DNA of 64,000 nt from an uncultured bacterium (GCA_966186595.1 CBIFWO010000003.1:306-64305), one strand, 5' to 3'; numbered from the stretch's first letter, positions 4,097 to 62,706 are shown. The notes: generated by a model not told the origin, from the sequence alone. Numbers and translations: made by a program.

Positions 4097-4165
4097 TTTG
4101 CATTTATATACAAAAAATGATTTAATACTGAATGCCTAGAACGACGAGAAAGTGAGGCACAGGAG

Positions 4166-4483
4166 ATGCCCTTAGAGTGTTGGGAGATCGAGAGGCAGGC
4201 CCTCATCTGGCAAACCAGCCTGGTGGGAAGAAGGAAGCTGGAGGTTGCTTTCCTCTGGCTGTTCCTCCTCGTAGGGTTGCCGCTGGCGACTGCCTTGGTG
4301 GTTCTGCTCTCTCAGAGCCGGCTGGATGAAGTTGCCAGCAGTCTGATTGCCTCGGTTGCTTGCATCGGGATCGTTGCGGGAGCGATCTACGCCGCCTACC
4401 AGATCTCGAACCTGGCCGAAGATCGCTTCTTCGAACCGAGGAGCCAAGCGATCGACGAGAAGTACCAACTCACTTCCACGTGA
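4166..4483 (+). CDS. GC-rich hypothetical membrane protein (2 TM)
   Basis: 105 aa with two hydrophobic helices and G/C-ending codons. Preceded by AGGAG and followed by an imperfect GC-rich hairpin at about 4492..4523. Confidence 0.55.
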   Translation: MPLECWEIERQALIWQTSLVGRRKLEVAFLWLFLLVGLPLATALVVLLSQSRLDEVASSLIASVACIGIVAGAIYAAYQISNLAEDRFFEPRSQAIDEKYQLTST

Positions 4484-4545
4484 TCAGGCGGCGCGGGCCG
4501 GGGCTACTACGGCTCCGGTCCGCGTCTGCGAACCAGGACACCTAA

Positions 4546-4574
4546 TTGACATTATGATAAGCATATGCTATATT
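4546..4574 (+). promoter_or_regulatory. sigma70-type promoter (TTGACA-N17-TATATT)
   Basis: TTGACA at 4546..4551, a 17-nt spacer and TATATT at 4569..4574, located 28 nt upstream of ATG 4602. Confidence 0.6.
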
Positions 4575-4601
4575 ATTTTTATAAACAAATAAAACAAACA
4601 T

Positions 4602-4934
4602 ATGCTTGCAGTTTTTATCAATCCCCTCGCCATTCTCATGAGTCTTAGCACTGCTACGGGTGTCCTTATTCATGACATGCATCTTGATCAGGCGGCCACT
4701 ACCTTAACGATGCCCGCTGCGATGGCGAATGTTGATACCACCAAGACAGCTAATCTTGGTGGTACTGACCATACGCACATCGAACGTGCCTCGGCTTCGC
4801 AGGCGATCGTTCATCTCAATAGTCGTAGCCCCGGTATTCAACCTCGTACTTTCGAAGATAAGAAACATCTGCTTCAAAAACGCGTTATGCGCGGTCATCA
4901 TGCGTTTGATAACTACAATTTACCCTTAGTCTAG
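4602..4934 (+). CDS. hypothetical protein with hydrophobic N-terminus
   Basis: 110-aa ORF behind a near-consensus promoter. The N-terminus is signal-like (MLAVFINPLAILMSLSTATG). No recognisable family. Confidence 0.45.
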   Translation: MLAVFINPLAILMSLSTATGVLIHDMHLDQAATTLTMPAAMANVDTTKTANLGGTDHTHIERASASQAIVHLNSRSPGIQPRTFEDKKHLLQKRVMRGHHAFDNYNLPLV

Positions 4935-4939
4935 GGAAA

Positions 4940-4968
4940 CCTGGTGCAGCCGCGCGGACTGCACCAGG
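4940..4968. terminator. bidirectional hairpin between convergent genes
   Basis: Perfect 10-bp stem (cctggtgcag / ctgcaccagg) with a 9-nt loop, between stop 4934 (+) and stop 4986 (-). Confidence 0.6.
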
Positions 4969-4985
4969 TGGGATCTTCCCTCCTC

Positions 4986-6443
4986 TTACCGGATCACGAC
5001 ATCATCGGCCTTCACGAAGCCGATGCGGTTGCCGTACTGGATCTCGATGAACCTCGTCTTGCCCGGGAAGACCTGGTGGTCGTAGGGGTAGGACGAGTCG
5101 ATCGCCCAGGCGTAGAAGTGATCGTTCACGGGTCCAGCGTCGATCACCCTGTAGCGCTGGCCGGCCAGAACGTTGTACGGCAGCGGAGCCTGCGGCGCGA
5201 GCGTCGGAATCCAGAAGGACGCCGGCGGAGTGCTGAGCAGATCGGTCGGGTAGGCCGACTGCTCGGGCACGGGACGGCCGTAGACCGGGATGCTGGTCTG
5301 ACCCGCCTTCGGGGCGATGTACTTGCCCGTGGCGGGCAGTGCGGCCGGGGCATTCCATGGGCTGAGGAGCCAGCCAGTAGAACCATTCACCCAGACCTTG
5401 TACCACATGCCACTGGTGTCGAACTTCTTGTCGGCGACGGCGAACGTCTGCCCGTAGAAGAGCCGGGCGGCGTTGTTCGTGATCTCCGTGCTTCCCTGGC
5501 CCAGAACTGGGTCCGTGAAGTACGGAGCATCGGAACGCGGCTCGGACCTCAGGTAGACGAAGTTCGCCGAGTGAGGGCCTTCTGGTGCGCAGCCGTTGTT
5601 ACCGACCGAGCATCCCGTCACTGACTGCTTGTTGAGCCACCAGATCGGGGCGACCGTCACGAAGTTGCTGTTCAGGCCACCGCTCGGAACCGCTGGCCCG
5701 CAGGTCATCGCCATGTACAGCTGCCAGTTCCAGTACGGACCTGGATCGGTGTGCATGCCGGCGATCTGCGAAGCCTTGACGGCTGGGATGTTGTCGTGTC
5801 CGAGGATGTGATCCCGGTCACATGAAATCCCGAAGCGACCCGTCAGGTACTTGACCAGCTCCGAACTCGACCGGTAGAGCGCCGTCGTGTAGTCGGTTCC
5901 GCCGGTGGCGGAGTGACCCTCGTGCTCGATGCCGATCTGGTGCATGTTGAAGTACCAGTTGCCCGCGTGCCACGGCATGTCCTGGGTGCGGACCATCTGG
6001 TACACCGTGCCGTCCTTGCAGACGACGTAGTGCGTGGCGGCGTAGTGCAGCGGATTCTTGAAGGCATCCAGGATCTCCTGGCAGGTGCCCTCACCGTCGT
6101 GAATGTTGATCGAGGTGATCTTCATGTCACGCGGACGATCGGTCACGTCGTAGTTGCCGTAGTTCGTGACATCGTCGCCGATGGCCGTAAAGGCCGCCGG
6201 GACAACGATGCAGCGGATCGTCGGCGGACACTCCGGCGTGATCGTCGGAGGTGTTACCGCGGCACTCGCGGCGAGCCTTGGCTCATTCTGCGCGAGCTTT
6301 TCGCTCATGCTGCTGCCGATCTGGTCGCCATCCAGTCCCGGAGCGTGTGCTCCGGCACTAGGTGCCAGTCCGATCAGCAGTACGAGTACTGCCAGGACCG
6401 TTGCAGCACTGCGCTGCGCTCGGTGTCTCACCAGCTTCTCCAT
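4986..6443 (-). CDS. secreted N-acetylmuramoyl-L-alanine amidase (Amidase_2/PGRP domain) with C-terminal SH3b-like repeats; GC-rich
   Basis: 485 aa. Signal peptide (AATVLAVLVLLIGLAPSAGAHA). Amidase_2 motifs: INIHDGEG, MPWHAGNWYFNMHQIGIEHEG, ILGHDNIP. Two C-terminal W/Y/G-rich beta modules. A sample at 5161..5220 is 68 % GC. Confidence 0.8.
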   Translation of the reverse strand: MEKLVRHRAQRSAATVLAVLVLLIGLAPSAGAHAPGLDGDQIGSSMSEKLAQNEPRLAASAAVTPPTITPECPPTIRCIVVPAAFTAIGDDVTNYGNYDVTDRPRDMKITSINIHDGEGTCQEILDAFKNPLHYAATHYVVCKDGTVYQMVRTQDMPWHAGNWYFNMHQIGIEHEGHSATGGTDYTTALYRSSSELVKYLTGRFGISCDRDHILGHDNIPAVKASQIAGMHTDPGPYWNWQLYMAMTCGPAVPSGGLNSNFVTVAPIWWLNKQSVTGCSVGNNGCAPEGPHSANFVYLRSEPRSDAPYFTDPVLGQGSTEITNNAARLFYGQTFAVADKKFDTSGMWYKVWVNGSTGWLLSPWNAPAALPATGKYIAPKAGQTSIPVYGRPVPEQSAYPTDLLSTPPASFWIPTLAPQAPLPYNVLAGQRYRVIDAGPVNDHFYAWAIDSSYPYDHQVFPGKTRFIEIQYGNRIGFVKADDVVIR

Positions 6444-6504
6444 CGTGTTTAGTGCCGTGTGGGGTCGGCAGAGGATGAAATCCCACGAATCCTATAGTAA
6501 CAGA

Positions 6505-9060: not shown

Positions 9061-9215
9061 TCGTCGTCTCTAGTACTAAAGTTACACGTGAAAAGCACAC
9101 CGAAGATAAGCCGACGTTTTCATGCGAAACGTTGCAATACCTCCAGGATGTTCTCGCACGTGTTTATTTTCACCTCTTATTATAGCACATGTCAGGCAGT
9201 GTATAATGTGTCTAT

Positions 9216-10187: not shown

Positions 10188-10198
10188 TTTTATTACAA

Positions 10199-11374: not shown

Positions 11375-12199
11375 GTGACTATGTTGAGAAGAACTGTCGT
11401 TGCTGTTTTGGTGACGGTGTTCGTTGCTTTGGGGTTGGGGGTGCCAGTGGCAAACGCGAGTGGAGTGATGCCTCTCGATGATCAGAAGCTGATGCTTCGA
11501 GACTTGGGCATCAACAACTTGGGTCGGGTCGTCGTCGACAGTGCGATGACCTACCAACAGGCCATCGGTGACAGCGTCGTCCCGGAAGAGGGTCGCGCGG
11601 TGCACGCAGCGATGAAGCCGCACCTTCGCGTTGTTCCGGTGGCCTACTGGGGTCTGAGCAACAGCGGCCAACCCGATGGGCGTGTTCACGTGGGTCAGAT
11701 CGTGGTCCACCGACTGCTCGTTCGGGATACGCTGAAGACGACCCTGAAGATGTTCCAGCTGGGATTCCCGATCCACTCGGTGATTCCGCAGAGTGCGTTC
11801 GGGTACAGCGACGCTGAGTCGATGGCGGCGAACAACTCGTCCAACTACCGGCCCGAATCGGGGTCGGAGCACGGACGGGCTGCCGCGTTCGACTGGAACC
11901 CGGTGCAGAATCCGTTCGACATCACTGGCTACAACCCGAACGTGCCCGTGCAGCCGGCGGGCGCCGTGCACGACCCGACCAAGCCCGGCACTCTCACCAT
12001 GGATGGCGCAGTTCGCAAGTACTGGGCATCGTTGAACTGGGAGTGGGGTGGCAACTGGGGCAACCCGGACGCCGATCCGCCAACGGACTTCTTCCGGAAG
12101 GGGTTCTTCGACTGGCAGCACTTCCAGCTCAACGCGAAGCGGTACGACGCATTCGTCGCGCAGCTGCCGCCCTGTGTGCGTGACTGGACCTGCGTCTAG
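11375..12199 (+). CDS. secreted LAS/M15-family peptidoglycan peptidase (VanY / M15_4-like); GC-rich
   Basis: 274 aa. Signal peptide (VAVLVTVFVALGLGVPVANASG). SEHGRAAAFD matches the S-x-H-x-x-G-x-A-x-D motif. WEWGGNWG...DWQHFQL matches the W.WGG.W...D..HF motif of M15 peptidases. The antisense 305-aa ORF is Arg/His-rich junk. Confidence 0.65.
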   Translation: MTMLRRTVVAVLVTVFVALGLGVPVANASGVMPLDDQKLMLRDLGINNLGRVVVDSAMTYQQAIGDSVVPEEGRAVHAAMKPHLRVVPVAYWGLSNSGQPDGRVHVGQIVVHRLLVRDTLKTTLKMFQLGFPIHSVIPQSAFGYSDAESMAANNSSNYRPESGSEHGRAAAFDWNPVQNPFDITGYNPNVPVQPAGAVHDPTKPGTLTMDGAVRKYWASLNWEWGGNWGNPDADPPTDFFRKGFFDWQHFQLNAKRYDAFVAQLPPCVRDWTCV

Positions 12200-12929: not shown

Positions 12930-12960
12930 ATATCTAGAATTGTACCATGAGACATGAAGC

Positions 12961-12987
12961 TCCCCCGGTCAACAATCGACCGGGGGA
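12961..12987 (-). terminator. conserved unit hairpin 1
   Basis: Perfect 10-bp stem (tcccccggtc / gaccggggga) with a 7-nt loop, 26 nt downstream of the cupin-1 stop. There is no U-tract. Confidence 0.5.
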
Positions 12988-13012
12988 AGCTCTTCAGGGG
13001 TGAAGCGAACGC

Positions 13013-13627
13013 TCAACTGACGAGGTCCAGGACTTCATCGGTGAAAATCTCGAAGTTGAGATGAAGCGAGTACTCGGGAGTGCTTGCTTCATGTTCGACA
13101 TCTGGTGGCATGATCAGGATGTCGCCAGCTTCGAGCACGAGTTCTCGCCGTGGTTCAGTCCCTCCGTCCTCGCGGATGAGTAGGCGCTTGGATCCTTCGA
13201 TCTGAGTGATGACGCCTACCCACCGATCGGTGTGCGGAGCGAATGATGCATCACCTGCCCGCGACTGGTAGGCGGAACAGGCGACCGGGAACTCTGTTGC
13301 CCCCGCGAGCATGATCTCGACAGCCCTGACCCATCCTCCGCCGTGCTCGCCCACATTTTCGCATACCTGAGTACGCGGTTGGGCGGAGTAGGCGGCCTCC
13401 ACGTCAGTGGTAGCCAGTTGTCGCTCGATGCCCTCGGGGCTCAGTAAGGACACTTTCTGGGTCGACGCCCGATCCTCACCGATTGCCATGGGCAGCGATT
13501 GGAGCCACGCCGGGTCGAAAGCGCCCTTCACGTGGAGCAGGCTGACAGAGGGGTTAGCTCTGGAAAACCCACTCGCGACGAGGACGCGCCAGAGCCGTCT
13601 GGCTACAAGGCTTGCCTCGTCGGACAT
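13013..13627 (-). CDS. JmjC/cupin_4-like Fe(II)/2-oxoglutarate oxygenase, short form (copy 1)
   Basis: 204 aa when started at ATG 13627, by alignment with copies 2 and 3; the track ORF runs on to 13765. H-x-D...H triad (APHTDRW ... VEHE) and QIEGSKRLLI. Confidence 0.7.
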   Translation of the reverse strand: MSDEASLVARRLWRVLVASGFSRANPSVSLLHVKGAFDPAWLQSLPMAIGEDRASTQKVSLLSPEGIERQLATTDVEAAYSAQPRTQVCENVGEHGGGWVRAVEIMLAGATEFPVACSAYQSRAGDASFAPHTDRWVGVITQIEGSKRLLIREDGGTEPRRELVLEAGDILIMPPDVEHEASTPEYSLHLNFEIFTDEVLDLVS

Positions 13628-13628
13628 G

Positions 13629-13793
13629 TCAGCTGTGGTGCACATGGGGCATCCCCGCCCTGATGTCGTAGCTGTACCCCCTGGCCACCCGGCTGCCGAG
13701 CGCAGCTTCCACGGCATGCCAGTCGAACTCGGGCAGTGGTGCGTCGGGCAGCTCGTCGAATTCAACGGAGGCTGCGATGGCTGGCGCGGTCAA
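13629..13793 (-). CDS. conserved small peptide P1 (54 aa) coupled to cupin 1
   Basis: TTG at 13793 lies after GAAGGTGAG. The stop TGA is 1 nt before the cupin ATG. Sequence MTAPAIAASVEFDELPDAPLPEFD...GYSYDIRAGMPHVHHS aligns with P2 and P3. Confidence 0.55.
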   Translation of the reverse strand: MTAPAIAASVEFDELPDAPLPEFDWHAVEAALGSRVARGYSYDIRAGMPHVHHS

Positions 13794-13842
13794 GGAACTC
13801 ACCTTCTCCTTTGTTGCTTCACACTCGGAATGAGCTAATTGC

Positions 13843-13872
13843 ACGATACAACACATTAATACACATAGTCAA
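13843..13872 (-). promoter_or_regulatory. promoter-like motif of unit 1 (TTGACT-N18-TATCGT)
   Basis: Minus strand: TTGACT at 13872..13867 and TATCGT at 13848..13843. Equivalent motifs in unit 2 (14865..14837, TTGACT-N17-TACTGT) and unit 3 (15840..15812, TTGACG-N17-TATGGT). Confidence 0.45.
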
Positions 13873-13921
13873 TGTATATCGAGGCAGATAAATACAAGAA
13901 TTGTACCCCGAGACATGAAAC

Positions 13922-13950
13922 TCCCCCCGGCCATCGATCGACCGGGGGAA
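13922..13950 (-). terminator. conserved unit hairpin 2
   Basis: 7-bp GC stem (cccccgg / ccggggg) around a loop containing atcgatcga, downstream of the cupin-2 stop. Confidence 0.45.
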
Positions 13951-13976
13951 GCTCTCCATGAGTGAAGTCGACCCGA

Positions 13977-14597
13977 TTATCCCGTGCGGAGCAGGGGCCG
14001 ATCCGTGAAAATCTCGAAGTTGAGATGAAGTGAGGACTCGGGAGTTCTCACTTCATGCTGGACATCTGGCGGCATGAGCAGGACGTCTCCGGCCTCAGTC
14101 ACGAGTTCCTGGAGGGGTCCCCGCCCATGGTCATCTCGTACCAGCCAGAGCTTCGAGCCCTTCACTTGGGGGATCAGCCCAATCCATCCGTCGACATGGG
14201 CGTCGAATGACGCATCTCCCTTTCTCGACTCATAGGAGGAACTGCTGACGCAGAACCCCGTAGCCGCAGAGAGGGCGATCACAACGTCCCTCACCCATCC
14301 GCCGCCGAACTTGCCCAGGTTCTCGTACGCGCGTGTACGCGGTTGGGCGGAGTAGGCGGCCTCGACGTCGGCGTCATGGAGCCATCGCTCGATCCCGTGG
14401 GGATCCAGCAGAGAGACCTCCTGACTCGCGGCCCTGTTCTCGCCTACGGCAAGGGGCAGGCTCTGTAGCCATGCCGGGTCGAATACCCTCTTCACGTGGA
14501 GGAGCCGGACAGAGGGGTTCTCCTTGGTGAACCCTCCCGCCGTTAACACGTGCCAGAGGGCATCGGCGACGGCGAGGGCGTCCGTCACTACCGTCAC
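13977..14597 (-). CDS. JmjC/cupin_4-like Fe(II)/2-oxoglutarate oxygenase, short form (copy 2)
   Basis: 206 aa. The GTG start overlaps the P2 stop (GTGA). AHVDGW ... VQHE triad and QVKGSKLWLV. Confidence 0.7.
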   Translation of the reverse strand: MTVVTDALAVADALWHVLTAGGFTKENPSVRLLHVKRVFDPAWLQSLPLAVGENRAASQEVSLLDPHGIERWLHDADVEAAYSAQPRTRAYENLGKFGGGWVRDVVIALSAATGFCVSSSSYESRKGDASFDAHVDGWIGLIPQVKGSKLWLVRDDHGRGPLQELVTEAGDVLLMPPDVQHEVRTPESSLHLNFEIFTDRPLLRTG

Positions 14598-14782
14598 GAG
14601 AGCGACGGGTCGAACGGGTCGCCGACGACGTGCTTGTGTGCGCCACCCCTAATCCTGTAGATGTACGGCTCGGCGACGGGACGGCAGATCGCTGCCGCAA
14701 TTGCGGCTGGATCGAGATCGGGCAGTGTCGCCTCGGGCAGCTCGTCGAAGTCGACGGTGACTGCAGTGGTTGGAGCAGACAA
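14594..14782 (-). CDS. conserved small peptide P2 (62 aa) coupled to cupin 2
   Basis: TTG start. Sequence MSAPTTAVTVDFDELPEATLPDLD...PYIYRIRGGAHKHVV. 4-nt overlap with the cupin start. Confidence 0.55.
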   Translation of the reverse strand: MSAPTTAVTVDFDELPEATLPDLDPAAIAAAICRPVAEPYIYRIRGGAHKHVVGDPFDPSLS

Positions 14783-14911
14783 TTGGAGCTCACCTTCTCG
14801 GTTAGTGGAACTTCATGCTCAGAAAGAGCTAATTGTACAGTATGATATATTATACGCATAGTCAATGTACATTGAGCAGATAAATACCAAAGGCACTATG
14901 AGACATGAAGC

Positions 14912-14938
14912 TCCCCCGGTCAACGATCGACCGGGGGA
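14912..14938 (-). terminator. conserved unit hairpin 3
   Basis: The same 10-bp stem (tcccccggtc / gaccggggga) with a 7-nt loop. Confidence 0.5.
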
Positions 14939-14968
14939 AGCTCTCCGGAGGGGAAGAAAACACCTAGC

Positions 14969-15583
14969 TCACCGGGTGAGGGGTAGATGGGTGAAGATCT
15001 CGAAGTTGACGTGAAGTGAGGACTCGGGAGTGCTCACTTCATGTTCAACAGTGGGTGGCATGATGAGAACATCACCCGCCTCGATGATGAGCTGCTGCCT
15101 CGGGCCCGTCCTCCCATTGCGAATCAGGAAGCGCTTTGAGCCCTTGATCTGAAGGATCACTCCGATCCAACGATCAACGTGCGCCCCGAAGGACGCATCG
15201 CCTGCTAGTGACTGATAGGCCGAACATCCGACGGAGAATCCCGTGGCGGTTGCCAAGAGAAGTTCTACGTCCTCGATCCATCCGCCACCGAGCTTGCCCA
15301 GATCCTCGTACACACGGGTACGAGACCGGGATGCATAAGCAGCCTCGACATCGGCGTCGTCGAGCCATCGCTCGATCCCGTCAGGGCTCAACAAGGACAC
15401 CTTTTGATCGGCGGCCCGGCGTTCCCCAATCGGCACTGGAAGGCTCCGTAGCCATTCCGGGTCAAGCGCGCGTCTGACGTGCAGAGCTCTCACAGAGGGG
15501 TTGCCTCTGGAGAATCCGCTTGCTGAGACGACGCGCCACAGCGTGCCGGCAATAGCTACCGGTGCCTCGATGGTGGTTGGCAT
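14969..15583 (-). CDS. JmjC/cupin_4-like Fe(II)/2-oxoglutarate oxygenase, short form (copy 3)
   Basis: 204 aa. AHVDRW ... VEHE triad and QIKGSKRFLI. About 55-65 % identical to copies 1 and 2 by eye. Confidence 0.7.
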   Translation of the reverse strand: MPTTIEAPVAIAGTLWRVVSASGFSRGNPSVRALHVRRALDPEWLRSLPVPIGERRAADQKVSLLSPDGIERWLDDADVEAAYASRSRTRVYEDLGKLGGGWIEDVELLLATATGFSVGCSAYQSLAGDASFGAHVDRWIGVILQIKGSKRFLIRNGRTGPRQQLIIEAGDVLIMPPTVEHEVSTPESSLHVNFEIFTHLPLTR

Positions 15584-15587
15584 GGCA

Positions 15588-15758
15588 CTACCTAACTGCA
15601 GTCAGGTGTGCATGGCCTCCGGACTCCATCTCATAGAGGTATGGGGTGCCCATACGACAATCCCTTGCCGCCTGCATGAGGTCGGGATTGGCATCGGGCA
15701 GCGTCACCGTGGGCAGGTCGTCGAGGTTGACGGTCTCTGCAATAATTGGCGCGGTCAA
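15588..15758 (-). CDS. conserved small peptide P3 (56 aa) coupled to cupin 3
   Basis: Below the ORF-track cutoff, so I translated it by hand: (TTG)MTAPIIAETVNLDDLPTVTLPDANPDLMQAARDCRMGTPYLYEMESGGHAHLTAVR. The stop TAG lies 4 nt before the cupin ATG. Confidence 0.5.
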   Translation of the reverse strand: MTAPIIAETVNLDDLPTVTLPDANPDLMQAARDCRMGTPYLYEMESGGHAHLTAVR

Positions 15759-15880
15759 GGAGCTCACCTCATCTTACATCGGTTTCTTCACGCTCAGAAA
15801 GAGCTGATCGTACCATACAACATAAGTTATTAATCGTCAATGCACCAAAAAGTACAACGGAATAGTGGTAGAATAGAAAC

Positions 15881-17261: not shown

Positions 17262-17492
17262 TTAGAAAGCGAGCTGGTGATCGCCCGAGATGCAGTTCGG
17301 GCATACCGGCTTCTCTGGAACCGGTTGGCCAGCGGGAATGTTGAACGTCTGGCGACAGATGCAGTTCGGCATTCTGCAGTCACAGGTTGCCTTTTGGTCA
17401 CTGTCCACCTGAAAGCAGCTCCTCTCATTAGCCGAACATATTCGAATGTGCTCGTTATCATACTCCTCAACTGAGCAGAGATCAAGGTTCAT
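17262..17492 (-). CDS. small Cys-rich protein Z1 (76 aa)
   Basis: Shares TC.C....C.C...F.IPAGQ.VP..P.C..C..G.H with Z2 and Z3. Has a longer N-terminus. No clear SD; its ATG lies 11 nt after a hairpin (17504..17538). Confidence 0.5.
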   Translation of the reverse strand: MNLDLCSVEEYDNEHIRICSANERSCFQVDSDQKATCDCRMPNCICRQTFNIPAGQPVPEKPVCPNCISGDHQLAF

Positions 17493-17616
17493 AAAGGACG
17501 AAAGCCGTGACCGGGACTACTTACCGACCGGCCACGGCCTGTACATTCGAGTCACCATGTATGGTCGTTGATCTTCGCCGGTCCGCATCCGGTTGTGAAG
17601 CGACCAAGGAGACTAC

Positions 17617-17799
17617 CTACGAGCCAGGGTGATTACCGCTGGCACATTGTGGACAAATCGGAAATTCTGGAACTACCTGCCCGGCTGGAATCCTGAAGTC
17701 CCTGGTGCAGGGGCAGTCATTCACCATGCAGTAGCAGGTGTACGACCCTCCATTGCTGATCTCCAGTTCCTCACCATTATTTTTACCAAACCAGGTCAC
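17617..17799 (-). CDS. small Cys-rich protein Z2 (60 aa)
   Basis: GTG start 9 nt after GGAGG. Sequence MTWFGKNNGEELEISNGGSYTCYCMVNDCPCTRDFRIPAGQVVPEFPICPQCASGNH. Confidence 0.6.
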   Translation of the reverse strand: MTWFGKNNGEELEISNGGSYTCYCMVNDCPCTRDFRIPAGQVVPEFPICPQCASGNHPGS

Positions 17800-17967
17800 T
17801 AGGCCTTGCCTCCTCTGTCGTCAGGGTCTTCGAACGTCTTGAATCATAGCAGACAAAGGGGAAAGAATCTAGGCTAGTAGGGGCCAGGACCGGCACTATC
17901 TTTAAACTAGTCCTGGCCCCCGGTTCGAGCCTCACCCAGGGCAGCACTCACCGTGTGGCCGATGGAC

Positions 17968-18147
17968 CTACAGGTATAAATGCCTTCCTGCTACACATCG
18001 GGAGCACTTCGGTGTACTCGGTACCGGTTGCCCGGCGGGGATGATGAAACTGTCTTGGCAGATGCAGAGGGTGTGTGAGCATCTGCACGTGTAGGCGGCT
18101 CCTGCACTGATCTCAACCTCATTGCTGCCACTGCCCCATAAAGGCAT
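17968..18147 (-). CDS. small Cys-rich protein Z3 (59 aa from ATG 18147; track ORF extends to 18180)
   Basis: MPLWGSGSNEVEISAGAAYTCRCSHTLCICQDSFIIPAGQPVPSTPKCSRCVAGRH aligns end to end with Z2. AAGGG lies 6 nt before the ATG. A perfect 11-bp hairpin sits downstream at 17880..17920. Confidence 0.6.
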   Translation of the reverse strand: MPLWGSGSNEVEISAGAAYTCRCSHTLCICQDSFIIPAGQPVPSTPKCSRCVAGRHLYL

Positions 18148-18227
18148 TGGACGCCCTTCTCTTCCGTTGCGAGCTAGCACGAACGTATCTACTGTAGCAC
18201 TTGATGCTCCTGTTGACCAGTGGTTAC

Positions 18228-19265
18228 TTAATAATAATTTTCGTGTTTAAAATAGTAATGCAAACGGGTAACGATTCGTTCGCCCAGCATTCGCCATACT
18301 TTATAGGCAAAAGGTCTGACAACAATATCGTACGCACCGACATAATCAGTGACTTCTTTGTTAAAGCTAGTCTTAAACCTGCCGATGCCGTAGTGGGGAT
18401 GATCGGGGTTGTTGATCTGATCTGAAGGAGGTGCGCCACAAAGGTCATGGGAAGTAACACCTTTTTCCTTTACCCACTTGATAACATGCCACTGCAAGAG
18501 GTGGCTGGCCCCGTAGACGGTTCGTTCGCGAACGGATGCGCCGTCTTTGTAGGTGCCTTTTTTGCCAAAGGTGATCGCATAGGCACCCGCGACGATCTGT
18601 TTATCGACGTAGGCAAAGAAAAGCTGTCCGAGGTTTGCCTGGGCATAGCGCTGCCAGAATGTCTTGTAGTAGTCAAAGCTTCGGATTCGGAATGATTCGG
18701 CGGCTGTTTCAGCGAGGAGGTCGTACATTATTCTGCAGTTTTCATCACTTGAATCCACACGTTTTACTGTAACTCCGTCGCGCTCGGCTCGACGAATGGC
18801 GTGGCGACCCTTTTGATTAAGATTACTCATGATGGTGTCGAGATCGGGCGATAGGTCAAGAAGGACAGTCGAGGAATTTGGTTGAATCGGGCGGACTTTG
18901 ATCAGGCCTAACTTCATAAGATCTGCCAGCGTCTCATCTTTTTTGATCAGTTCTGGCTCGATTTTTACCGCAAAAACACCATTTTCCTCAGCGAATTTCC
19001 TGAGGGGAGGAAGAAGGCTATCGAGCTGTCGGACTGAGGTAACTCCCGGGCCTTTTGGAATGTACCATAGTTTGCCGAGACCGACGATGGATTTCTCCAA
19101 GACAGTGATGGCGAGGTTTTCGGCCTCGACAAAACGCGGCTCCCATCCACCCAACCTTTTTTGCTCGGCAAATTCGGACCCTTGAAAGACATTGCCGCCG
19201 TCCGGATTGGCGAGAATACGGTCATTCCAGTTAGATTCTGTGTCGGGCGTAACGAATGTAATCAT
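18228..19265 (-). CDS. FemAB-family peptidoglycan interpeptide-bridge aminoacyltransferase (second paralog)
   Basis: 345 aa. GNVFQGSEFAEQKRLGGWEPRF matches the FemAB N-terminal signature. Same length class as the 9216..10187 gene. Confidence 0.75.
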   Translation of the reverse strand: MITFVTPDTESNWNDRILANPDGGNVFQGSEFAEQKRLGGWEPRFVEAENLAITVLEKSIVGLGKLWYIPKGPGVTSVRQLDSLLPPLRKFAEENGVFAVKIEPELIKKDETLADLMKLGLIKVRPIQPNSSTVLLDLSPDLDTIMSNLNQKGRHAIRRAERDGVTVKRVDSSDENCRIMYDLLAETAAESFRIRSFDYYKTFWQRYAQANLGQLFFAYVDKQIVAGAYAITFGKKGTYKDGASVRERTVYGASHLLQWHVIKWVKEKGVTSHDLCGAPPSDQINNPDHPHYGIGRFKTSFNKEVTDYVGAYDIVVRPFAYKVWRMLGERIVTRLHYYFKHENYY

Positions 19266-21915: not shown

Positions 21916-22353
21916 ATGGACGTCGATGAGACTCTGTTGGCTCGCTGCCAGTCAGCCCTCGACCAACTGCGCGATGCCAGCCAGAACTCCGAATTTCGCT
22001 CAACTGATGGGCGGAATGGAGCGATCAGCGGCAAGTCGGCGCTGTCGGCTGTCGGCATCCGGGGTGACGAGGCACAGGAAGTTCGCTACTACCTCCGCCA
22101 GCTCGGGTTGGCCAAGGCGGCGGAGGAGAGCGAACACGCTTCCAACCTGTGGTACTGGGACATCAGTTACGACGGGGGCGTCGAAGCCGATGCACTCCAG
22201 AAGCTGACAGAAGAGAAGCCTTGGAAGGGCCGCTCGAAGCGGCGGGGCGAGATCGACCCCAACGTCGAGAAGATCGCGGAGTTGACCGCGAAGCTCGCGG
22301 TGGCCGAAGCCGAACTGGCGCGCTACAAGCAGCGCTACGGCGAACTCGACTGA
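21916..22353 (+). CDS. GC-rich hypothetical protein with C-terminal coiled coil
   Basis: 145 aa with G/C-ending codons and its own promoter, SD and terminator. No recognisable family. Confidence 0.6.
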   Translation: MDVDETLLARCQSALDQLRDASQNSEFRSTDGRNGAISGKSALSAVGIRGDEAQEVRYYLRQLGLAKAAEESEHASNLWYWDISYDGGVEADALQKLTEEKPWKGRSKRRGEIDPNVEKIAELTAKLAVAEAELARYKQRYGELD

Positions 22354-28025: not shown

Positions 28026-28150
28026 AGAAGTTATTCCAGATACTCGCAAGCTATGCGGGTATGACTACGTCGTAGACATACTTGTATTTTCCAAATAATC
28101 TGTTATTATATTCCTACACGAGAAGATCGTTACCGTAAGGGAGGACCGTC

Positions 28151-28282
28151 ATGCGACAGTACGGCGAATTGAGGGTGTCGTCCTACTACACACCCGATCG
28201 AGATTGGGAGCTGCGAAATGTTCGTTGCAGCTTCGTCTCATCTGATGATGAGCACACGTCGCTACCGGGGTCGGCCCCCTAG
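28151..28282 (+). CDS. GC-rich mini-ORF (43 aa) next to tRNA-Ser
   Basis: AAGGGAGGA SD lies 6 nt before the ATG. Hand translation: MRQYGELRVSSYYTPDRDWELRNVRCSFVSSDDEHTSLPGSAPP. Below the track cutoff. Confidence 0.35.
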   Translation: MRQYGELRVSSYYTPDRDWELRNVRCSFVSSDDEHTSLPGSAP

Positions 28283-28286
28283 CGCG

Positions 28287-28508
28287 CTAACCCGGCTGGC
28301 GCAAGATGGCTGGGGGCTCGTCACGAGCGTCAGTCTCCAGAAGATGGAGGGTGGTCGCCAGCTCGTTCAGGAGATCATCCACACGATGGTGCGGGATGTT
28401 CCGGACGAGCCGCCTGGCCAACTCTGATTGGCTGCGACCTAGGTCATCTCGCGGGTGGGGCAGGTGGCGCTGCAGTAACATGCACGCCACCTGGATATCC
28501 CCAAGCAC
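28287..28508 (-). CDS. GC-rich hypothetical ORF, possibly a gene remnant
   Basis: 73 aa, GTG start, no convincing SD. Its composition is more protein-like than the Arg-rich plus-strand shadow ORFs. The RNIPHH segment vaguely recalls an HEPN Rx4H motif. Confidence 0.25.
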   Translation of the reverse strand: MLGDIQVACMLLQRHLPHPRDDLGRSQSELARRLVRNIPHHRVDDLLNELATTLHLLETDARDEPPAILRQPG

Positions 28509-28545
28509 AATTGAATTTTTTTATTATTCCACCTAGACTTGAACT

Positions 28546-42981: not shown

Positions 42982-43119
42982 ATGGGTGTCGACCCTAAGA
43001 TTCAGGCGGTCATCGATGCTGAGGCGGCTCTGGAGAGGGCAAAAGCGGCAGGAGAGTCCACCGCTGATGCACAGAAGCAATTCGATGCCGCCAACCAGGA
43101 TCTTCTGAAGAACGACTAG
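42982..43119 (+). CDS. GC-rich mini-ORF (45 aa, helical)
   Basis: TTGATT-N18-TATACT promoter-like motif and GAAGGA SD. Hand translation: MGVDPKIQAVIDAEAALERAKAAGESTADAQKQFDAANQDLLKND. Followed by a terminator. Confidence 0.4.
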   Translation: MGVDPKIQAVIDAEAALERAKAAGESTADAQKQFDAANQDLLKND

Positions 43120-44795: not shown

Positions 44796-45146
44796 CTAGT
44801 AGGTGCGGAGCGACAAGGGTGCCCGATCACTGAACCGGTTGGCCACGATCACGACCGAGAAGTCGTCCTGTCCACAATGGAACGTGACGCTGGCCACGGG
44901 GAAGTGCCGGTCGAATGCATCTTTGATGGCTTGACGCAGCTCGTCTCGCTTTTCCCGGCTCACCGGTAGACCGGTGAAGTCGTACGAGCCGTAGTGGTCG
45001 TCGCGCGGCCACTCCACACCGTTGACTTCCGTCTTGGCGTTGAGGGCGTAGTCGGCGAGTAGTAGCCCGATCATCCGTTGGGGTGATATGTACCGGACAG
45101 GGCCTTTGGCGTCGACAGTCTCCTCGACGTTTGGAGGCTCACTCAT
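44796..45146 (-). CDS. GC-rich hypothetical protein (116 aa)
   Basis: TTGACA-N16-TATGGT (45207..45180) and GGAGG 9 nt before the ATG, plus its own terminator. No recognisable family. Confidence 0.6.
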   Translation of the reverse strand: MSEPPNVEETVDAKGPVRYISPQRMIGLLLADYALNAKTEVNGVEWPRDDHYGSYDFTGLPVSREKRDELRQAIKDAFDRHFPVASVTFHCGQDDFSVVIVANRFSDRAPLSLRTY

Positions 45147-48394: not shown

Positions 48395-48763
48395 CTACTC
48401 AGCCAGTGCTGCCTCTATCGCGGCCTCCATGGTGACGTGGCAGGCCACTTCACTGTCCTTGTCAAGAATGGAGGACAGTTTGATGAAGGTTGCTCCGTCG
48501 AACATGAAGGTGAAGTCGATGAGAATCGGACCGCGAGCCTCCTCCACAAGCCTCTGGAGGCGGGGACTGAGCTCGTTGAAAGACACCCAGGGTCGGAAGG
48601 ACGAGAAGTCATCCGACATGGGCGTGAGCTGGACAACGGAAGGAGATGAATCAGAGTGGGTCACCATTCGCGTGTAACAGCTCAGTTGAATTACCTCTGG
48701 GCCCTGGATGAACTTTCCATTGCCGTTAGTGGAGTACAGACGAACTGTTCGGAATTCCCTCAA
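48395..48763 (-). CDS. GC-rich hypothetical protein (122 aa)
   Basis: TTG start 4 nt after GGAGGTG, with a TATAAT upstream. A long imperfect hairpin sits downstream at about 48316..48376. No family recognised. Confidence 0.55.
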   Translation of the reverse strand: MREFRTVRLYSTNGNGKFIQGPEVIQLSCYTRMVTHSDSSPSVVQLTPMSDDFSSFRPWVSFNELSPRLQRLVEEARGPILIDFTFMFDGATFIKLSSILDKDSEVACHVTMEAAIEAALAE

Positions 48764-49475: not shown

Positions 49476-49871
49476 TTAGCGGACGTAGCCGCATGCCGCA
49501 ACCAGTGCTTCCATCTCGCCCATGTACAGGCAGAACTGGAAGTAGCCGACCACCGGTACGACGTACACTGCCTTCATGCTTGGCTTCAGCTCCATGTGTG
49601 GCAGGCAGCCTCGGAACGCTGCCTCGGAGAGACCCTTGCGTGGGTCCAAGCTGCCAAGAATGGGCGTGTCCCCATCCAACAGCCAGTACTCCGGAGCGTG
49701 CTCGGGAGCGAAGTGGCCGTCGTAGAACCATTCCTCTGCCTTCTCAGTCGGGTCCCAGATGTACCCATCACGAACCTGGCTGAGGGGGCTACTGAAGCAC
49801 TGCGCAAGAGCGGCGATGCCGCTTTTTTCTGCAGCGTCCAGTAATACGGGGTAATTGCAATAACCGGACAC
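49476..49871 (-). CDS. GC-rich hypothetical protein (131 aa)
   Basis: GTG start after GGAGGTGG. TTGATA-N16-TATAAT at 49926..49899. No confident family; loosely immunity-protein-like. Confidence 0.55.
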   Translation of the reverse strand: MSGYCNYPVLLDAAEKSGIAALAQCFSSPLSQVRDGYIWDPTEKAEEWFYDGHFAPEHAPEYWLLDGDTPILGSLDPRKGLSEAAFRGCLPHMELKPSMKAVYVVPVVGYFQFCLYMGEMEALVAACGYVR

Positions 49872-57207: not shown

Positions 57208-57250
57208 AAATACACCGGTAATCCCGGTGTATTTTGTTTGGAGCGAGTTA

Positions 57251-57640: not shown

Positions 57641-57763
57641 GGAGTTTATTACCTCTTAAATTAATAGATACAATCAAGGAGTGATTATAGGGGAAAAGTA
57701 GGGAAATGTAAAGGGGTGACGATTCCAAAACGCACCAAGTGAATTGATGGGCTTTGGAACAGC

Positions 57764-57803: not shown

Positions 57804-58508
57804 TCAGCGGCGCTTGGTGAAGGTGATGGCGGTGTTGCCTTCGCCCTCGAATCGCCAGGCGAAGAAGGCCGGTCGGGGGTCGAGCACCACGAGCTTGGAG
57901 CCATCACCATCCGTCCGCATCCGTCCGCCGCCTCGGTAGCAGTAGACCTCGTAGGGACTCATCCCCGCGCGGTACACCACCTTACAGACGTCGTCCGGAC
58001 CGAGGTTGATGAAGAACTTGTACTCGTGTTTGCCCGGGACCTCAACCTCGACTTCGGTCACCACCTCGGGCGTGCCGCGCTTGGTCAGGACGATGCCATC
58101 GAGGGTGTTACCCTCGCCGACGTACGCCTGGACGCTGAAGATGCCCATCTTGGACTGGGTCACGAGCAGTGCGATGACTTCGCCCTTCTCAGGATCCCAC
58201 ATCGCGAACGCCGCCTTCTGGAAGGGCAGGTACTGGGTTCTGGACTTGAGCGTGGACATGTCGATGTCCACGTGCTCAAGCGGCTCGTCGCCCAGATGCC
58301 AGATGCCGCCGTCCTTCATGTGGAGGACGCGCTCGACACCATCCCGGATGTCCTCCAGGCAGTATCGGCCCTCCTCCCAGGAGAACACGGCCAGCTCGCG
58401 GAAGTTCTCGTTGTTCTTGGTTCTCAGGAGCACGAGCTTCTGCTTTTCGTCGACAGCGACAATGATGTTGCCACTCGCCGAGTCCTTCCAGGTGCGCATT
58501 CGCACCAC
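57804..58508 (-). CDS. GC-rich hypothetical protein (234 aa, beta-rich)
   Basis: GTG start 6 nt after GGAGGTG. Consensus promoter upstream and hairpin downstream. The antisense 268-aa ORF is a shadow. Confidence 0.65.
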   Translation of the reverse strand: MVRMRTWKDSASGNIIVAVDEKQKLVLLRTKNNENFRELAVFSWEEGRYCLEDIRDGVERVLHMKDGGIWHLGDEPLEHVDIDMSTLKSRTQYLPFQKAAFAMWDPEKGEVIALLVTQSKMGIFSVQAYVGEGNTLDGIVLTKRGTPEVVTEVEVEVPGKHEYKFFINLGPDDVCKVVYRAGMSPYEVYCYRGGGRMRTDGDGSKLVVLDPRPAFFAWRFEGEGNTAITFTKRR

Positions 58509-60581: not shown

Positions 60582-60582
60582 T

Positions 60583-61269
60583 TTATGATCTTACAATGAA
60601 GTAATTGAGTCCAAGATTATCTCCTTGGGTCCGGACATTATATTCGTAATCACTTTTTTGCGATTGGTGCGCCTGCATGACTGTGAGGATGTCCTCTCGC
60701 AGGTTGCGCGCATCGACAATTTCGCCAACTTCGTCGGGTGATCGACCAGCTTCCATAAAGATCCAATCTGTATTCTCGGTGGGAAAGAGCTTATCTGGCA
60801 GACATGCAAGACGAATCCGATTAATACGGTGGTCGGTTTGTTTTAGAGCATAAAACGCATAGCAGACGGCTCTCGCAGCAACAATGTGGTCAACATGACC
60901 AGTATAGCCATTCAGATCAAGCGTCATAAACTCAAAGGTCACATCTTCGGGCTCATCGTGAAGCAGGGAAGTGGCATGGGCAATTAGCTGGTTGCCGATC
61001 TCGATCATATCGGTGTTATTTAACTTGCCATCACCGTAGGAGAAAAATTTCATGCTTTTTGCTCCAAGGAGTTCACCGGCTGCATGCCACTCCTTTAGCC
61101 GAACAGCACCCAAGTCGGGAACATTATCCGGGTTCATGCCAGCTTCACCGGCTGTCAGGGTGACAAGATGTAGTTCTGTGCCGGCGATGGCCTCTTTGAG
61201 GAGGGTGCCAGCGGGGCCAAACGCTTCGTCGTCGGGATGGGCAAACACGCCAAGGATAATTTTTTTCAT
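60583..61269 (-). CDS. PIG-L/LmbE-family deacetylase
   Basis: 228 aa with the AHPDDE motif near the N-terminus and a later H.DH. Confidence 0.8.
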   Translation of the reverse strand: MKKIILGVFAHPDDEAFGPAGTLLKEAIAGTELHLVTLTAGEAGMNPDNVPDLGAVRLKEWHAAGELLGAKSMKFFSYGDGKLNNTDMIEIGNQLIAHATSLLHDEPEDVTFEFMTLDLNGYTGHVDHIVAARAVCYAFYALKQTDHRINRIRLACLPDKLFPTENTDWIFMEAGRSPDEVGEIVDARNLREDILTVMQAHQSQKSDYEYNVRTQGDNLGLNYFIVRS

Positions 61270-61364
61270 AGTTCTAGTATAAGGTATTGAACTTATTGTC
61301 TTTATATGGAATAATTACCGTCAGTCCATCCCAGTCCGGGATGGCGACGAGAGGGAGAGGTCCG

Positions 61365-61676
61365 ATGATCAGGAGCCAGAACTCGCAGAACGCCACGTTC
61401 GAGCGAGAGAACTGCCTGCTGCGCACCTCCATCACGGCTCAGATCATGATGGAAGTGGCAAGATTGATCGGTGCCGCTAACCGGAGCGAAGCGGCCCACA
61501 AGGTCGAGGGATTGCTCTGGCGCTGCGAGCTCCAGCGTGAACCCGACCTGAAGGTGGTGGTTCGCGTGTCCGAGGAGTCACTCCTCGACACGGTGCGCGC
61601 CGCGTTGCGGGCGCCGGGCTTCACGGTGATCACGAAGCGGGGCGACCAGGGAGACTACCTGGACGTGCGTTTCTGA
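61365..61676 (+). CDS. GC-rich hypothetical protein (103 aa)
   Basis: ATG 61365 follows GGGAGAGG. The track ORF starts at TTG 61287, and ATG 61341 is also possible. No family recognised. Confidence 0.5.
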   Translation: MIRSQNSQNATFERENCLLRTSITAQIMMEVARLIGAANRSEAAHKVEGLLWRCELQREPDLKVVVRVSEESLLDTVRAALRAPGFTVITKRGDQGDYLDVRF

Positions 61677-61957
61677 GATCACTTATTTGGTAATCAGCTC
61701 AAGCTCAACCTTTTGTAGCTCAACGTTCATTTTTCATGTGGTGTATCTTTGCGAGAACGCAGAAAAACCATTGCAAAAATATGTCATTTTGATGAATGAA
61801 CGGAGTAGCGGAAGGGTGCAAACTTTGCCCTCTCGTCAATCCGTTCCATAGATGTGTATCTGTGCTGACGAGTCCGAAAGGACGAAAACGGTATCGACAG
61901 ATTTGTAATATCATGATATAGATATATGGTGATTCACTACTTCTAGGAGGTGTTCTC

Positions 61958-62644
61958 GTGTTCGACGGACGGACTTGGAGAAACGACCACAGCAAGAGAG
62001 TGCGGTTCTACGGCCTCTTCGAGGAGATGCCGGGAGGATTTCGGTACTTCATGCTCACGATGGGCGCGGCGGCGGTTTGCTTTCTGTTGCCGAGGCTCCT
62101 GATGAAGGTCGGCGTCCTGCCGGAAGTGCAATTTGGCTTGGGCGTTTGGCTGGTTGTACTGCTGACGACGCTCTTGATGGGCGCGTCGCTCCATCTCTGG
62201 CATGCCCATGGGTGGCGCACGCTGGAGAGTGGTGGGTTGGTTGATTTCGGCTCCTTCGCCTTCGGCCAGCTGCAAGATGCCTTGAGCGAACGCGGCTTCA
62301 CGATCTCCCAGATGAACGATCGGCTCGACTACAGCGTTGGTCCGCAGCACATCACCGCCTTCCTGGCGTACACCAAGCGAGCATCGCGGCGGATCGAGAC
62401 GAAGCTCCTGACCCCTGTGCTGCAGGTGCAGCTCGAAGGCAGGGTGCGGGACATCGCGGCTGGCTACGCCGATCTGATCAAGTTCTGCTTCGATCAGCGT
62501 GAACTCGCCAAGCAGGCGCGTGATCGCTGGGAGGGCGACGAGGCGAGAAAGATCGAAGTGGCGATGCGGGACCGGGTGAAGCGTTTCTACCTCGACCAGG
62601 ATGCCATTGACTGGCTTTCAACCCACGCTGCCGTCTCGATCTGA
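61958..62644 (+). CDS. GC-rich hypothetical membrane protein (2 TM plus soluble C-terminal domain)
   Basis: 228 aa. GTG start 6 nt after TAGGAGGTG. Followed by a hairpin at 62660..62689. Confidence 0.6.
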   Translation: MFDGRTWRNDHSKRVRFYGLFEEMPGGFRYFMLTMGAAAVCFLLPRLLMKVGVLPEVQFGLGVWLVVLLTTLLMGASLHLWHAHGWRTLESGGLVDFGSFAFGQLQDALSERGFTISQMNDRLDYSVGPQHITAFLAYTKRASRRIETKLLTPVLQVQLEGRVRDIAAGYADLIKFCFDQRELAKQARDRWEGDEARKIEVAMRDRVKRFYLDQDAIDWLSTHAAVSI

Positions 62645-62659
62645 GAAGCGGTGAGTCAC

Positions 62660-62689
62660 CAGGGTGCCGACGCAGTTGTCGGTACCCTG
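62660..62689 (+). terminator. hairpin after GC-rich gene
   Basis: 12-bp stem (cagggtgccgac / gtcggtaccctg) with one G-U pair and a 6-nt loop. Confidence 0.55.
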
Positions 62690-62706
62690 TGATTCACTCA
62701 CGTATA

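Follow-up and report, generated by a model that had tools for sequence, protein, structure and literature searches.

GC-rich single-gene segments of a Saccharimonadales chromosome as probable accessory cassettes of a long-lived flexible gene pool

The overall question raised by this locus is why a chromosome of ordinary base composition is interrupted again and again by short GC-rich segments, and where the genes in those segments come from. The locus is a 64,000-nucleotide stretch of DNA from an uncultured bacterium (GCA_966186595.1 CBIFWO010000003.1:306-64305), hereafter called the window, with an overall guanine-plus-cytosine (GC) content of 51.1%. The original prediction, made from the sequence alone, listed 13 GC-rich islands in the genome of a Saccharibacteria-like epibiont and explained them as genes captured piecemeal from high-GC actinobacterial hosts. 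We analyzed the composition of the segments, the homologues of their proteins, and the same chromosomal positions in related genomes. Our results indicate that the segments are probably moron-like single-gene accessory cassettes, drawn from a lineage-specific flexible pool and located in recombination and turnover hot spots of a naturally competent lineage.

All 13 listed segments have a GC content above background (0.545-0.627), and the earlier hand counts of four 60-nt samples were reproduced exactly (68.3, 60.0, 50.0 and 48.3% GC). We found a GC content of at least 0.59 in 23 of the 213 non-overlapping 300-nt intervals, compared with 0.8 expected from a binomial model. Open reading frames (ORFs) were called, and frames were then picked by codon-position periodicity. 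A profile of GC and of GC at third codon positions (GC3), proposed with the original prediction as a check, deviated significantly: 14 ORFs in ten of the segments have GC3 values of 0.66-0.86 (z = 2.7-6.6), and the backbone genes have 0.522 ± 0.051 (n = 53; Mann-Whitney p = 6e-9). The codons of these ORFs, said to end overwhelmingly in G or C, do so in 77% of cases versus 53% in the backbone; GC at the first and second positions (GC1 and GC2) is raised only modestly. The prediction of 13 islands therefore stands for ten segments with GC3-rich ORFs, but not for the other three, which are a set of tandem Cys-rich ORFs, a non-coding stretch and a 45-amino-acid (aa) ORF.

The switch in composition coincides with ORF boundaries, as had been described, and it is sharp. 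The 120 nt upstream of nine of the 14 ORFs are 34-42% GC, and GC3 is ordinary (0.497 vs 0.505) in the 40 backbone codons next to an island. Island codon usage is skewed (AAG, 0.93; TTC, 0.94; CGG, CCC and TCC raised), with fewer Lys and Ile and more Arg and Pro residues. This profile resembles that of a genome with approximately 60-65% GC, as transfer from an Actinomycetota host would predict. The cassettes are dispersed across 58 kb, in about ten slots in 64 kb with one or two genes each (Table 1). A typical cassette would be a GC3-rich ORF with a Shine-Dalgarno sequence, preceded by an AT-rich sigma70-like promoter and followed by a GC-rich hairpin, and set in a fixed intergenic slot of a collinear chromosome.

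A chimeric assembly, or a bin contaminated with high-GC DNA, could also generate such a compositional contrast, and the contrast itself is all that speaks for an artefact. An independent ENA assembly of another sample matches window positions 3444-17213 at 99.5% identity, including five pairs of island junctions, and at least five other samples have contigs with GC-rich genes in the same slots. Because the same junctions are present in an independent assembly, they are not assembly chimeras, and we consider an artefact of either kind extremely improbable.

The backbone has the Saccharibacteria-like character that had been proposed for it. There were 527 relatives of valS among GTDB species representatives, and the best 80, with at most 77% identity, are nearly all labelled Saccharibacteria or Saccharimonadales; judged by these relationships, the backbone is Saccharimonadales. 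Backbone ORFs of at least 75 aa, annotated with Pfam, are housekeeping genes (valS, tsaD, sua5, Mur ligase, two FemAB, groES/EL, pgi, RNR, znuABC-like, gdh, pyrG, argS, mscL, orn, dnaG, rpoD, polA, fpg, holA, truB and rpsO). We compared the window with the loci of the best 80 of the 527 valS relatives. The order rlmH, 110-aa ORF, valS, FemAB, TsaD, (Sua5), Mur ligase is preserved in all 80, and none of the 80 carries any of the five cassettes of the valS region. For example, the 110-aa ORF directly adjoins valS in locus L004, and the TsaD, Sua5 and Mur ligase genes are adjacent in L007. Relative to these more distant species representatives, in which the order of the flanks is kept, the islands are discrete insertions. 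Like morons, the cassettes lie between genes that are adjacent in relatives, both in the 80 valS loci and, for Sua5 and the Mur ligase, in the closer locus L091.

A syntenic comparison had been proposed as a way to find empty sites. The slots are indeed empty in the 80 species representatives, but they are occupied in closer relatives. Contigs with positional homologues came from three other samples (SRR21515677, SRR26329223 and JGI 3300053724). Contig SRR21515677_9420, which includes loci L084 and L091, is collinear with window positions 3.1-57.6 kb and has same-slot homologues of the 105-aa ORF, the amidase (67% identity), the M15 peptidase (81%), the 131-aa ORF (50%) and the 116-aa ORF (41%). 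Loci L086 and L088 have same-slot homologues of the 234-aa, 103-aa and 228-aa ORFs (30-73% identity, GC3 0.73-0.92), and an amidase gene is found beside valS, in the same slot, in L089, L090, L091 and L092 (GC3 0.73, 0.85, 0.53 and 0.52). Amino acid identity to the contigs of these three samples is approximately 60-97% for the backbone (76-97% for most genes) and 30-81% for the cassettes. Most cassettes are thus present in close relatives; the cupin array, which is found in L001, is the only one that the nearest relative, L091, lacks, and there the Sua5 and Mur ligase genes lie side by side. Compared with L084, L086, L088 and L091, the window differs in which slots are filled, in how many copies and with which genes, and L091 has extra GC-rich ORFs of 160, 106, 96 and 53 aa. 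By comparison of these sequences, the same core-flanked interval holds different accessory content across genomes, as is characteristic of hot spots of horizontal gene transfer (HGT).

Recent and repeated capture, by DNA uptake, of one gene at a time from Actinomycetota hosts of high GC content, followed by domestication with local promoters, would explain the GC-rich composition and the codon and amino acid profile, and competence is known in the phylum. We found that the homologues of the cassette proteins point elsewhere. There were 1,472 matches to the amidase, and the nearest were proteins of 430-540 aa with 45-70% identity from Saccharimonadales-type or unnamed contigs. Every retrieved genomic context of these nearest homologues is Saccharimonadales, several of them on contigs of 0.2-1.3 Mb. 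Actinobacterial amidases (approximately 650 aa; Streptomyces, Kribbella and Nonomuraea) come next, at about 40% identity, a similarity that favors host capture. A rough neighbour-joining (NJ) tree groups the Saccharimonadales-type sequences together, next to the actinobacterial amidases. Because the similarity to Streptomyces is only about 40%, the relation of the amidase to Actinomycetota is ancient at most. None of the 45 homologues of the M15 peptidase is named as Actinomycetota; the sole named one is Saccharimonadales, and several are on contigs of 0.6-1.3 Mb. The suggestion that both enzymes look like proteins of high-GC Gram-positive bacteria is supported for the amidase and not for the M15 peptidase.

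Among 1.84 billion representatives, the eight orphan ORFs matched no more than 40 homologue clusters, and every retrieved context is again Saccharimonadales. Two observations on the cupin favor capture: its array is missing from the nearest relative, and its sole named relatives are Streptomyces cupins with 31-36% identity (found in a plasmid search; no full protein search was made). Resemblance to Streptomyces is limited, among the cassette proteins, to the amidase (about 40%) and the cupin (36%) and is distant in both, and identities to Actinomycetota are never above about 42%. The M15 peptidase and the eight orphans are without an actinobacterial homologue among the proteins searched, their homologues all coming from Saccharimonadales-like or unnamed metagenome contigs, and most cassettes are shared, slot for slot, with relatives that have nearly saturated fourfold sites in the backbone. 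Based on these comparisons, host capture is already contradicted for most cassettes, and as a general explanation we consider it quite unlikely. Any derivation of the amidase, and perhaps of the cupin, from Actinomycetota-like proteins would be ancient. WhiB-family genes were also found in relatives, just past the equivalent of the window's end (L086:8288-8548 and L088:5745-6041; GC3 0.74-0.79). Because WhiB is typical of Actinomycetota and their phages, these GC3-rich genes, which do favor capture, are better candidates for host-derived genes than any gene of the window.

Phages and plasmids gave no closer relatives. In tblastn searches with every cassette protein, 50,697 phages and 72,556 plasmids yielded distant amidase, M15 and cupin matches only; sequenced actinophages and actinobacterial plasmids gave nothing closer than distant domain matches. 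There were no matches to the cupin, the 234-aa orphan or the amidase in IMG/VR scans, two weak matches in PHROGs and no defence match in PADLOC, and the orphan ORFs had no phage match in tblastn, PHROGs or IMG/VR. In a PDB sequence search the cupin had no match, and the amidase matched only AmpD, weakly. The absence of mobile-element genes noted in the original prediction was confirmed on each count: Pfam revealed no integrase or transposase among the scanned window ORFs of at least 75 aa, the only flanking direct repeats were 12-nt chance matches, and no phage gene was found, the backbone consisting of housekeeping genes and the phage searches being without a match for the orphans.

GC-rich segments are not peculiar to this window. 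Near valS in other Saccharimonadales they make up a median of 5.8% of the sequence (maximum 32%), compared with 17% in the window. The GC3-rich ORFs of those neighbourhoods mostly have no Pfam domain, although some could be assigned, among them WhiB, a permease and large serine recombinases. GC-rich genes for the latter are located less than 10 kb from valS in two distant Saccharimonadales (L046:5828-7705 and L060:17728-19560), which indicates that GC-rich integrative elements exist in this group. We rejected these two as parts of an actinobacterial element, their best matches being phage integrases of Firmicutes (25-29%).

The cassettes thus appear to be long-lived within the lineage, with diverged homologues in the same slots of relatives, rather than recent captures from Actinomycetota. 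Slots would gain, lose, duplicate or swap cassettes. We suggest that this occurs by natural transformation, followed either by homologous recombination through the conserved flanks or by homology-facilitated illegitimate insertion; such a route would require no dedicated recombinase. Natural competence and homologous recombination have been documented in cultivated Saccharibacteria (PMC10633639). Given this competence, the earlier suggestion of DNA uptake rather than mobile elements remains plausible, although fresh capture from hosts as the source of the DNA does not.

There are two possible signs of recombination in the flanks, an incongruence of valS and clustered differences between strains. 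valS (6505-9060) is 76% identical to its counterpart in L091 (L091:3422-5971), no closer than to other genera. Other backbone genes (tsaD, femAB, groEL) range from 87 to 97%. Because the adjacent TsaD and FemAB are 90% and 87% identical to those of L091, import of a segment by recombination is suggested, with a distant lineage of Saccharimonadales as the likely source of a replacement valS(-amidase) segment. Between the window and the 99.5%-identical strain, approximately 60 of 67 differences are inside or directly beside islands, and they are clustered, with 14 in 150 bp of the M15 gene (11620-11767) and another 22 in about 100 bp.

We compared rates of evolution between the cassettes and the backbone. 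For the backbone, relative to nearest relatives, nonsynonymous divergence (dN) is 0.02-0.12, the proportion of differing synonymous sites (pS) is 0.65-0.80, and the ratio of nonsynonymous to synonymous divergence (dN/dS) is 0.01-0.08. The corresponding values for the cassettes are 0.15-0.63, 0.35-0.63 and 0.18-0.82. The dN of cassettes is 5-10 times that of the backbone; cassette proteins would be evolving faster by this factor under relaxed or diversifying selection. At fourfold-degenerate sites, divergence as a fraction of saturation is 0.73-0.89 for the backbone and 0.41-0.75 for six of seven cassette pairs; the seventh (4166-4483) has a value of 1.23, from only 13 sites. The lower divergence of cassette fourfold sites indicates constraint. 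Cassette orthologues other than the amidase have GC3 values of 0.72-0.92, even where the backbone GC3 is 0.38-0.40. Because GC3-rich genes share slots with relatives that are near synonymous saturation in the backbone, the cassettes are old residents and not recent captures.

High GC3 could be a legacy of one ancient acquisition per cassette from a very GC-rich donor, with the genes still drifting and GC3 not maintained. The modest rise in GC1 and GC2 fits such a history, as does the backbone-like GC3 of the amidase in some lineages (0.47-0.53), which is expected of completed amelioration. As a rough calculation, the backbone fourfold divergence of approximately 0.8 of saturation between the window and the SRR21515677 relative corresponds to about 1.2 substitutions per site. 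Neutral decay would then have reduced a GC3 deviation to about 40% since the split, so that even genes that started at 0.95-1.0 should now have a GC3 no higher than about 0.70. Because the observed values of 0.72-0.92 in both lineages exceed this prediction, as does 0.82 at a backbone GC3 of approximately 0.4, simple amelioration is a poor fit. The latter value comes from locus L093, where the neighbouring 640-aa protein is only 69% identical to that of the window. Given also the constraint seen at fourfold sites, we consider a purely neutral legacy unlikely.

Alternatively, a GC-favoring fixation bias specific to this class of genes could keep cassette GC3 at about 0.8 whatever the first source of the genes; mRNA or codon selection, biased gene conversion at recombination hot spots, and a targeted mutational process are proposed sources. 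Such a bias would explain why the GC3 of orthologues is similar across genomes with a backbone GC3 of 0.38 to 0.55 and why synonymous divergence is lower than in the backbone, and a calculated population-scaled bias of only about 1.3 suffices. The concentration of strain-level variation and apparent recombination tracts in the cassettes is also consistent with it. Against it, no known mechanism targets such genes, and the amidase loses the signal in some lineages. Biased gene conversion predicts that high GC3 spills over into the ends of flanking genes; none was found, and the sharp boundaries likewise speak against conversion tracts. Selection for translation efficiency was rejected as the cause because native highly expressed genes prefer other codons. 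Overall, a fixation bias of this kind seems to us rather doubtful.

A broader proposal is that fast-evolving single-gene cassettes form a dedicated class in Saccharimonadales, and that their high-GC, Actinomycetota-like codon and amino acid usage is actively maintained, independently of backbone GC and over divergences that nearly saturate synonymous sites of the backbone. We regard this as possible rather than probable. Its extreme form, in which the cassettes would be adapted to translation resources taken from the host or would be translated during contact with a high-GC host, is very unlikely. High GC3 does appear to be a long-lived property of most cassette families, independent of backbone GC; it may be held by a modest GC-favoring fixation bias or by an unsampled GC-rich reservoir.

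Several observations weigh against our interpretation of the segments as self-contained, long-lived cassettes. The insertion mechanism is inferred, and neither recombination junctions nor donor molecules were seen. The amidase has a GC3 of only 0.47-0.53 in L091, L092, L002 and L003, compared with 0.73-0.85 in the window, L089 and L090, and its tree is a single NJ tree with a chosen root. The cupin had no match in two JGI metagenome scans or an IMG/VR scan, with no full protein search made. Biased gene conversion, one possible cause of persistent high GC3, is argued against by the ordinary GC3 of the flanks, and CGG, CCC and TCC, which the islands favor, are avoided by GroEL and ribosomal protein genes, so the island pattern is not the native optimal one. 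The promoters and terminators of the cassettes are predicted signals, consensus matches only: a consensus scan of 3-23 kb revealed 21 promoter-like sites versus 14.3 ± 3.6 in shuffled sequences, a slight excess only, and 22 terminator-like sites versus 19 ± 3.8.

These counts also qualify the earlier claim that the islands carry their own expression signals. The motifs are present around single ORFs: the three promoter strings quoted with the original prediction (Table 1) are in place letter for letter, GGAGG Shine-Dalgarno sites precede several start codons, and GC-rich hairpins follow stop codons as described. However, site numbers are barely above those in shuffled sequences, and most of the hairpins lack a U-tract. 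The hairpins share no attC-like sequence except within the cupin repeats.

Table 1. Positions and properties of the cassettes and of the three listed segments that are not GC3-rich cassettes
Feature	Position	Strand	Description	GC3 (or GC)	Promoter-like motif	Same slot in relatives
Cassette 1	4166..4483	+	105-aa membrane protein, between rlmH and the 110-aa backbone ORF; AT-rich promoter-like region upstream, GC-rich hairpin downstream	GC3 0.75		L091: 105-aa ORF, 34% identity, GC3 0.76
Cassette 2	4986..6443	-	secreted N-acetylmuramoyl-L-alanine amidase, Amidase_2 (Pfam), signal peptide, 485 aa; perfect hairpin downstream	GC3 0.82		
Cassette 3	11381..12199	+	secreted M15_4 peptidase (Pfam), 272 aa	GC3 0.79		L091: ortholog, GC3 0.81
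Cassette array 4	12944..15840	-	three tandem units of approximately 975 bp, JmjC_2/cupin (Pfam)	GC3 0.66-0.74		
Cupin genes of array 4	13013-13645, 13977-14597, 14969-15583	-				
Cassette 5	21916..22353	+	145-aa orphan, coiled-coil C-terminus; canonical terminator at 22408-22431	GC3 0.79	TTGCAT-N17-TATAAT, 21851-21879	L091: C-terminal half alone, plus a second GC-rich 53-aa cassette with its own putative promoter
Cassette 6	44796..45146	-	116-aa orphan	GC3 0.76		L084:12627-12974, GC3 0.82; dN/dS 0.82
Cassette 7	48395..48763	-	122-aa orphan	GC3 0.68		L084: non-homologous 153-aa ORF, GC3 0.77
Cassette 8	49476..49871	-	131-aa orphan	GC3 0.73	TTGATA-N16-TATAAT, 49926-49899	L084:8058-8453, GC3 0.72; neighbour PolA 95.5% identical
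Cassette 9	57804..58508	-	234-aa orphan, predicted all-beta	GC3 0.86	TTGACT-N17-TATAAT, 58570-58542	L086: two tandem copies, 54% and 30% identity, GC3 0.79 and 0.88; L093: 36% identity, GC3 0.82
Cassette 10a	61365..61676	+	103-aa orphan, downstream of a divergently transcribed PIG-L gene	GC3 0.85		L086: 73% identity, GC3 0.81; L088: 36% identity, GC3 0.92
Cassette 10b	61958..62644	+	228-aa membrane-anchored orphan	GC3 0.79		L088: 41% identity, GC3 0.73; missing from L086
Cys-rich tandem ORFs	17262..18246	-	three tandem 351-bp units, one small Cys-rich ORF each	GC 0.54, GC3 0.49-0.64 (ordinary)		
Non-coding stretch	28110..28520	+	GC-rich, approximately 400 nt, after tRNA-Ser(GGA); hairpin and T-run at the end			
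Small ORF	42982..43119	+	45-aa Ala-rich ORF	GC 0.565		L084: homologous 45-aa ORF at the same place

The cupin region is, from its repeat structure, a threefold duplication of a whole unit. Each unit contains a predicted promoter, a small ORF, a JmjC_2/cupin gene and a conserved hairpin. The small ORF (59 aa) is intact solely at 15588-15767 and is decayed in the two other copies. The cupin paralogues are mutually 63-67% identical, and the array contains repeat families D1-D5. Differences between strains cluster between the copies, which suggests gene conversion among them. A permuted tmRNA called by ARAGORN at 14315-14952 was treated as a false positive; it overlaps the coding sequence of the cupin, and Rfam does not support it.

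Other slots illustrate different kinds of turnover. Because the slot of cassette 7 holds a non-homologous GC-rich ORF in L084, it appears to have undergone replacement. In L093 the homologue of the 234-aa orphan lies between the same two neighbours as in the window, and the backbone GC3 there is 0.38-0.40. An AlphaFold2 model of this orphan family (all-beta, weak, with a predicted local distance difference test score of 63) had no Foldseek match in PDB at E<0.1. A further homologue of the 228-aa orphan was found beside a PIG-L gene on a Logan contig. The 640-aa backbone protein next to cassette 9 (58659-60581) has a long, low-complexity C-terminal half rich in Ala, Pro and Glu, no Pfam domain, and 69-87% identity in relatives. 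A GC-rich stretch absent from the earlier list, at 59581-60580, corresponds to its Ala/Pro-rich tail.

No Rfam family matched any of the three segments that are non-coding or weak. The Cys-rich ORFs of 17262-18246 are approximately 55-60 aa long and share the motif IPAGQxVPxxPxCPxCxxGxH. The alignment with L091 stops at window position 17387 and restarts at 18229, and the gap in L091 is only about 300 bp; the segment had no match in Rfam. The stretch at 28110-28520 is the one island that abuts a tRNA gene, as had been noted, namely tRNA-Ser(GGA). It has no consistent reading frame, minimum free energy z-scores of -4.1 (+ strand) and -3.3 (- strand), and no Rfam family at E<=0.1; it may be a candidate non-coding RNA, a decayed cassette or another gene relic. 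The second tRNA-Ser, at 27936-28025, was found by ARAGORN and by a local Rfam run (48 bits) and was absent from the whole-window Rfam search at the gathering threshold. Elsewhere in the backbone, rpsT (S20) is a real gene at 57251-57640 (- strand), as judged by 88% identity to the S20 gene of L093, and an ORF called on the opposite strand at 57234-57659 (+), which this gene overlaps, is spurious.

Saccharibacteria are obligate epibionts with genomes of approximately 1 Mb. About 12% of the sequence in the window seems to be given over to very small accessory slots without recombinases. In two of them the gene encodes a secreted cell-wall hydrolase, the amidase in one and the M15 peptidase in the other, and these enzymes plausibly act at the interface between epibiont and host; the rest hold rapidly evolving orphans; together they are natural candidates for host-range or arms-race factors. 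As a rule, laterally acquired or orphan genes are AT-richer than their surroundings and ameliorate. The cassettes contradict this rule, with a GC3 of about 0.8 at a backbone GC3 of 0.4-0.5, which is a caution against taking GC-rich genes of epibionts for recent captures from the host. If confirmed genome-wide, GC3 would be a simple marker for this class of cassettes, and the class would be a test case for selection versus biased conversion in a competent, reduced genome. Active maintenance, if true, would call for a gene-class-specific force, such as mRNA selection, a targeted bias in mutation or repair, or the continual replenishment of cassettes from a GC-rich reservoir not yet sampled; to our knowledge, no gene-class-specific force that maintains GC3 has been described for bacteria. 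That GC3 stays high in orthologues that evolve so fast is the part of these findings that deserves further study.

Several known systems share features with the cassettes. Phage morons are single-gene insertions between conserved phage genes. Like them, the cassettes have one ORF with its own promoter- and terminator-like signals between genes that are adjacent in relatives, a base composition unlike that of the neighbours, and variable presence between related genomes. Unlike morons, they are carried by a cellular chromosome without phage genes, are GC-richer rather than AT-richer than their carrier, and in many cases persist in different species as orthologues at the same position. Core-flanked HGT hot spots, or flexible genomic islets, are without mobile-element genes and are linked to homologous recombination and transformation. 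They resemble our slots in that accessory genes of differing content are concentrated in a few core-flanked intervals, with no integrase and with signs of recombination in the flanks (valS); the slots described here differ in being very small, about ten in 64 kb, with a cargo that shares a persistent composition and evolves fast.

Two further systems are less similar. In the classical model of HGT, compositionally atypical genomic islands ameliorate over time. The cassettes share their atypical GC and codon usage and their absence from the same locus in distant relatives, but show no amelioration at near-saturated backbone divergence, and their donors are not identifiable. An integron cassette, too, is a single ORF with an imperfect inverted repeat behind it, whereas the cassettes of the window are dispersed, each with its own promoter-like region and with no integron integrase in the window. 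Gene acquisition by Saccharibacteria has been reported for the arginine deiminase system (PMC8764695), and genomic islands and HGT have been described in groundwater Patescibacteria, with most detected transfers between Patescibacteria (PMC12455944). In the accessible text of these reports, reduced epibiont genomes likewise gain genes laterally and competence is proposed as a route; what that text describes are operons or larger, tool-predicted islands, rather than positionally conserved, hyper-diverged, GC3-rich single-gene cassettes. By analogy, then, the closest counterparts of the cassettes are phage morons and core-flanked HGT hot spots.

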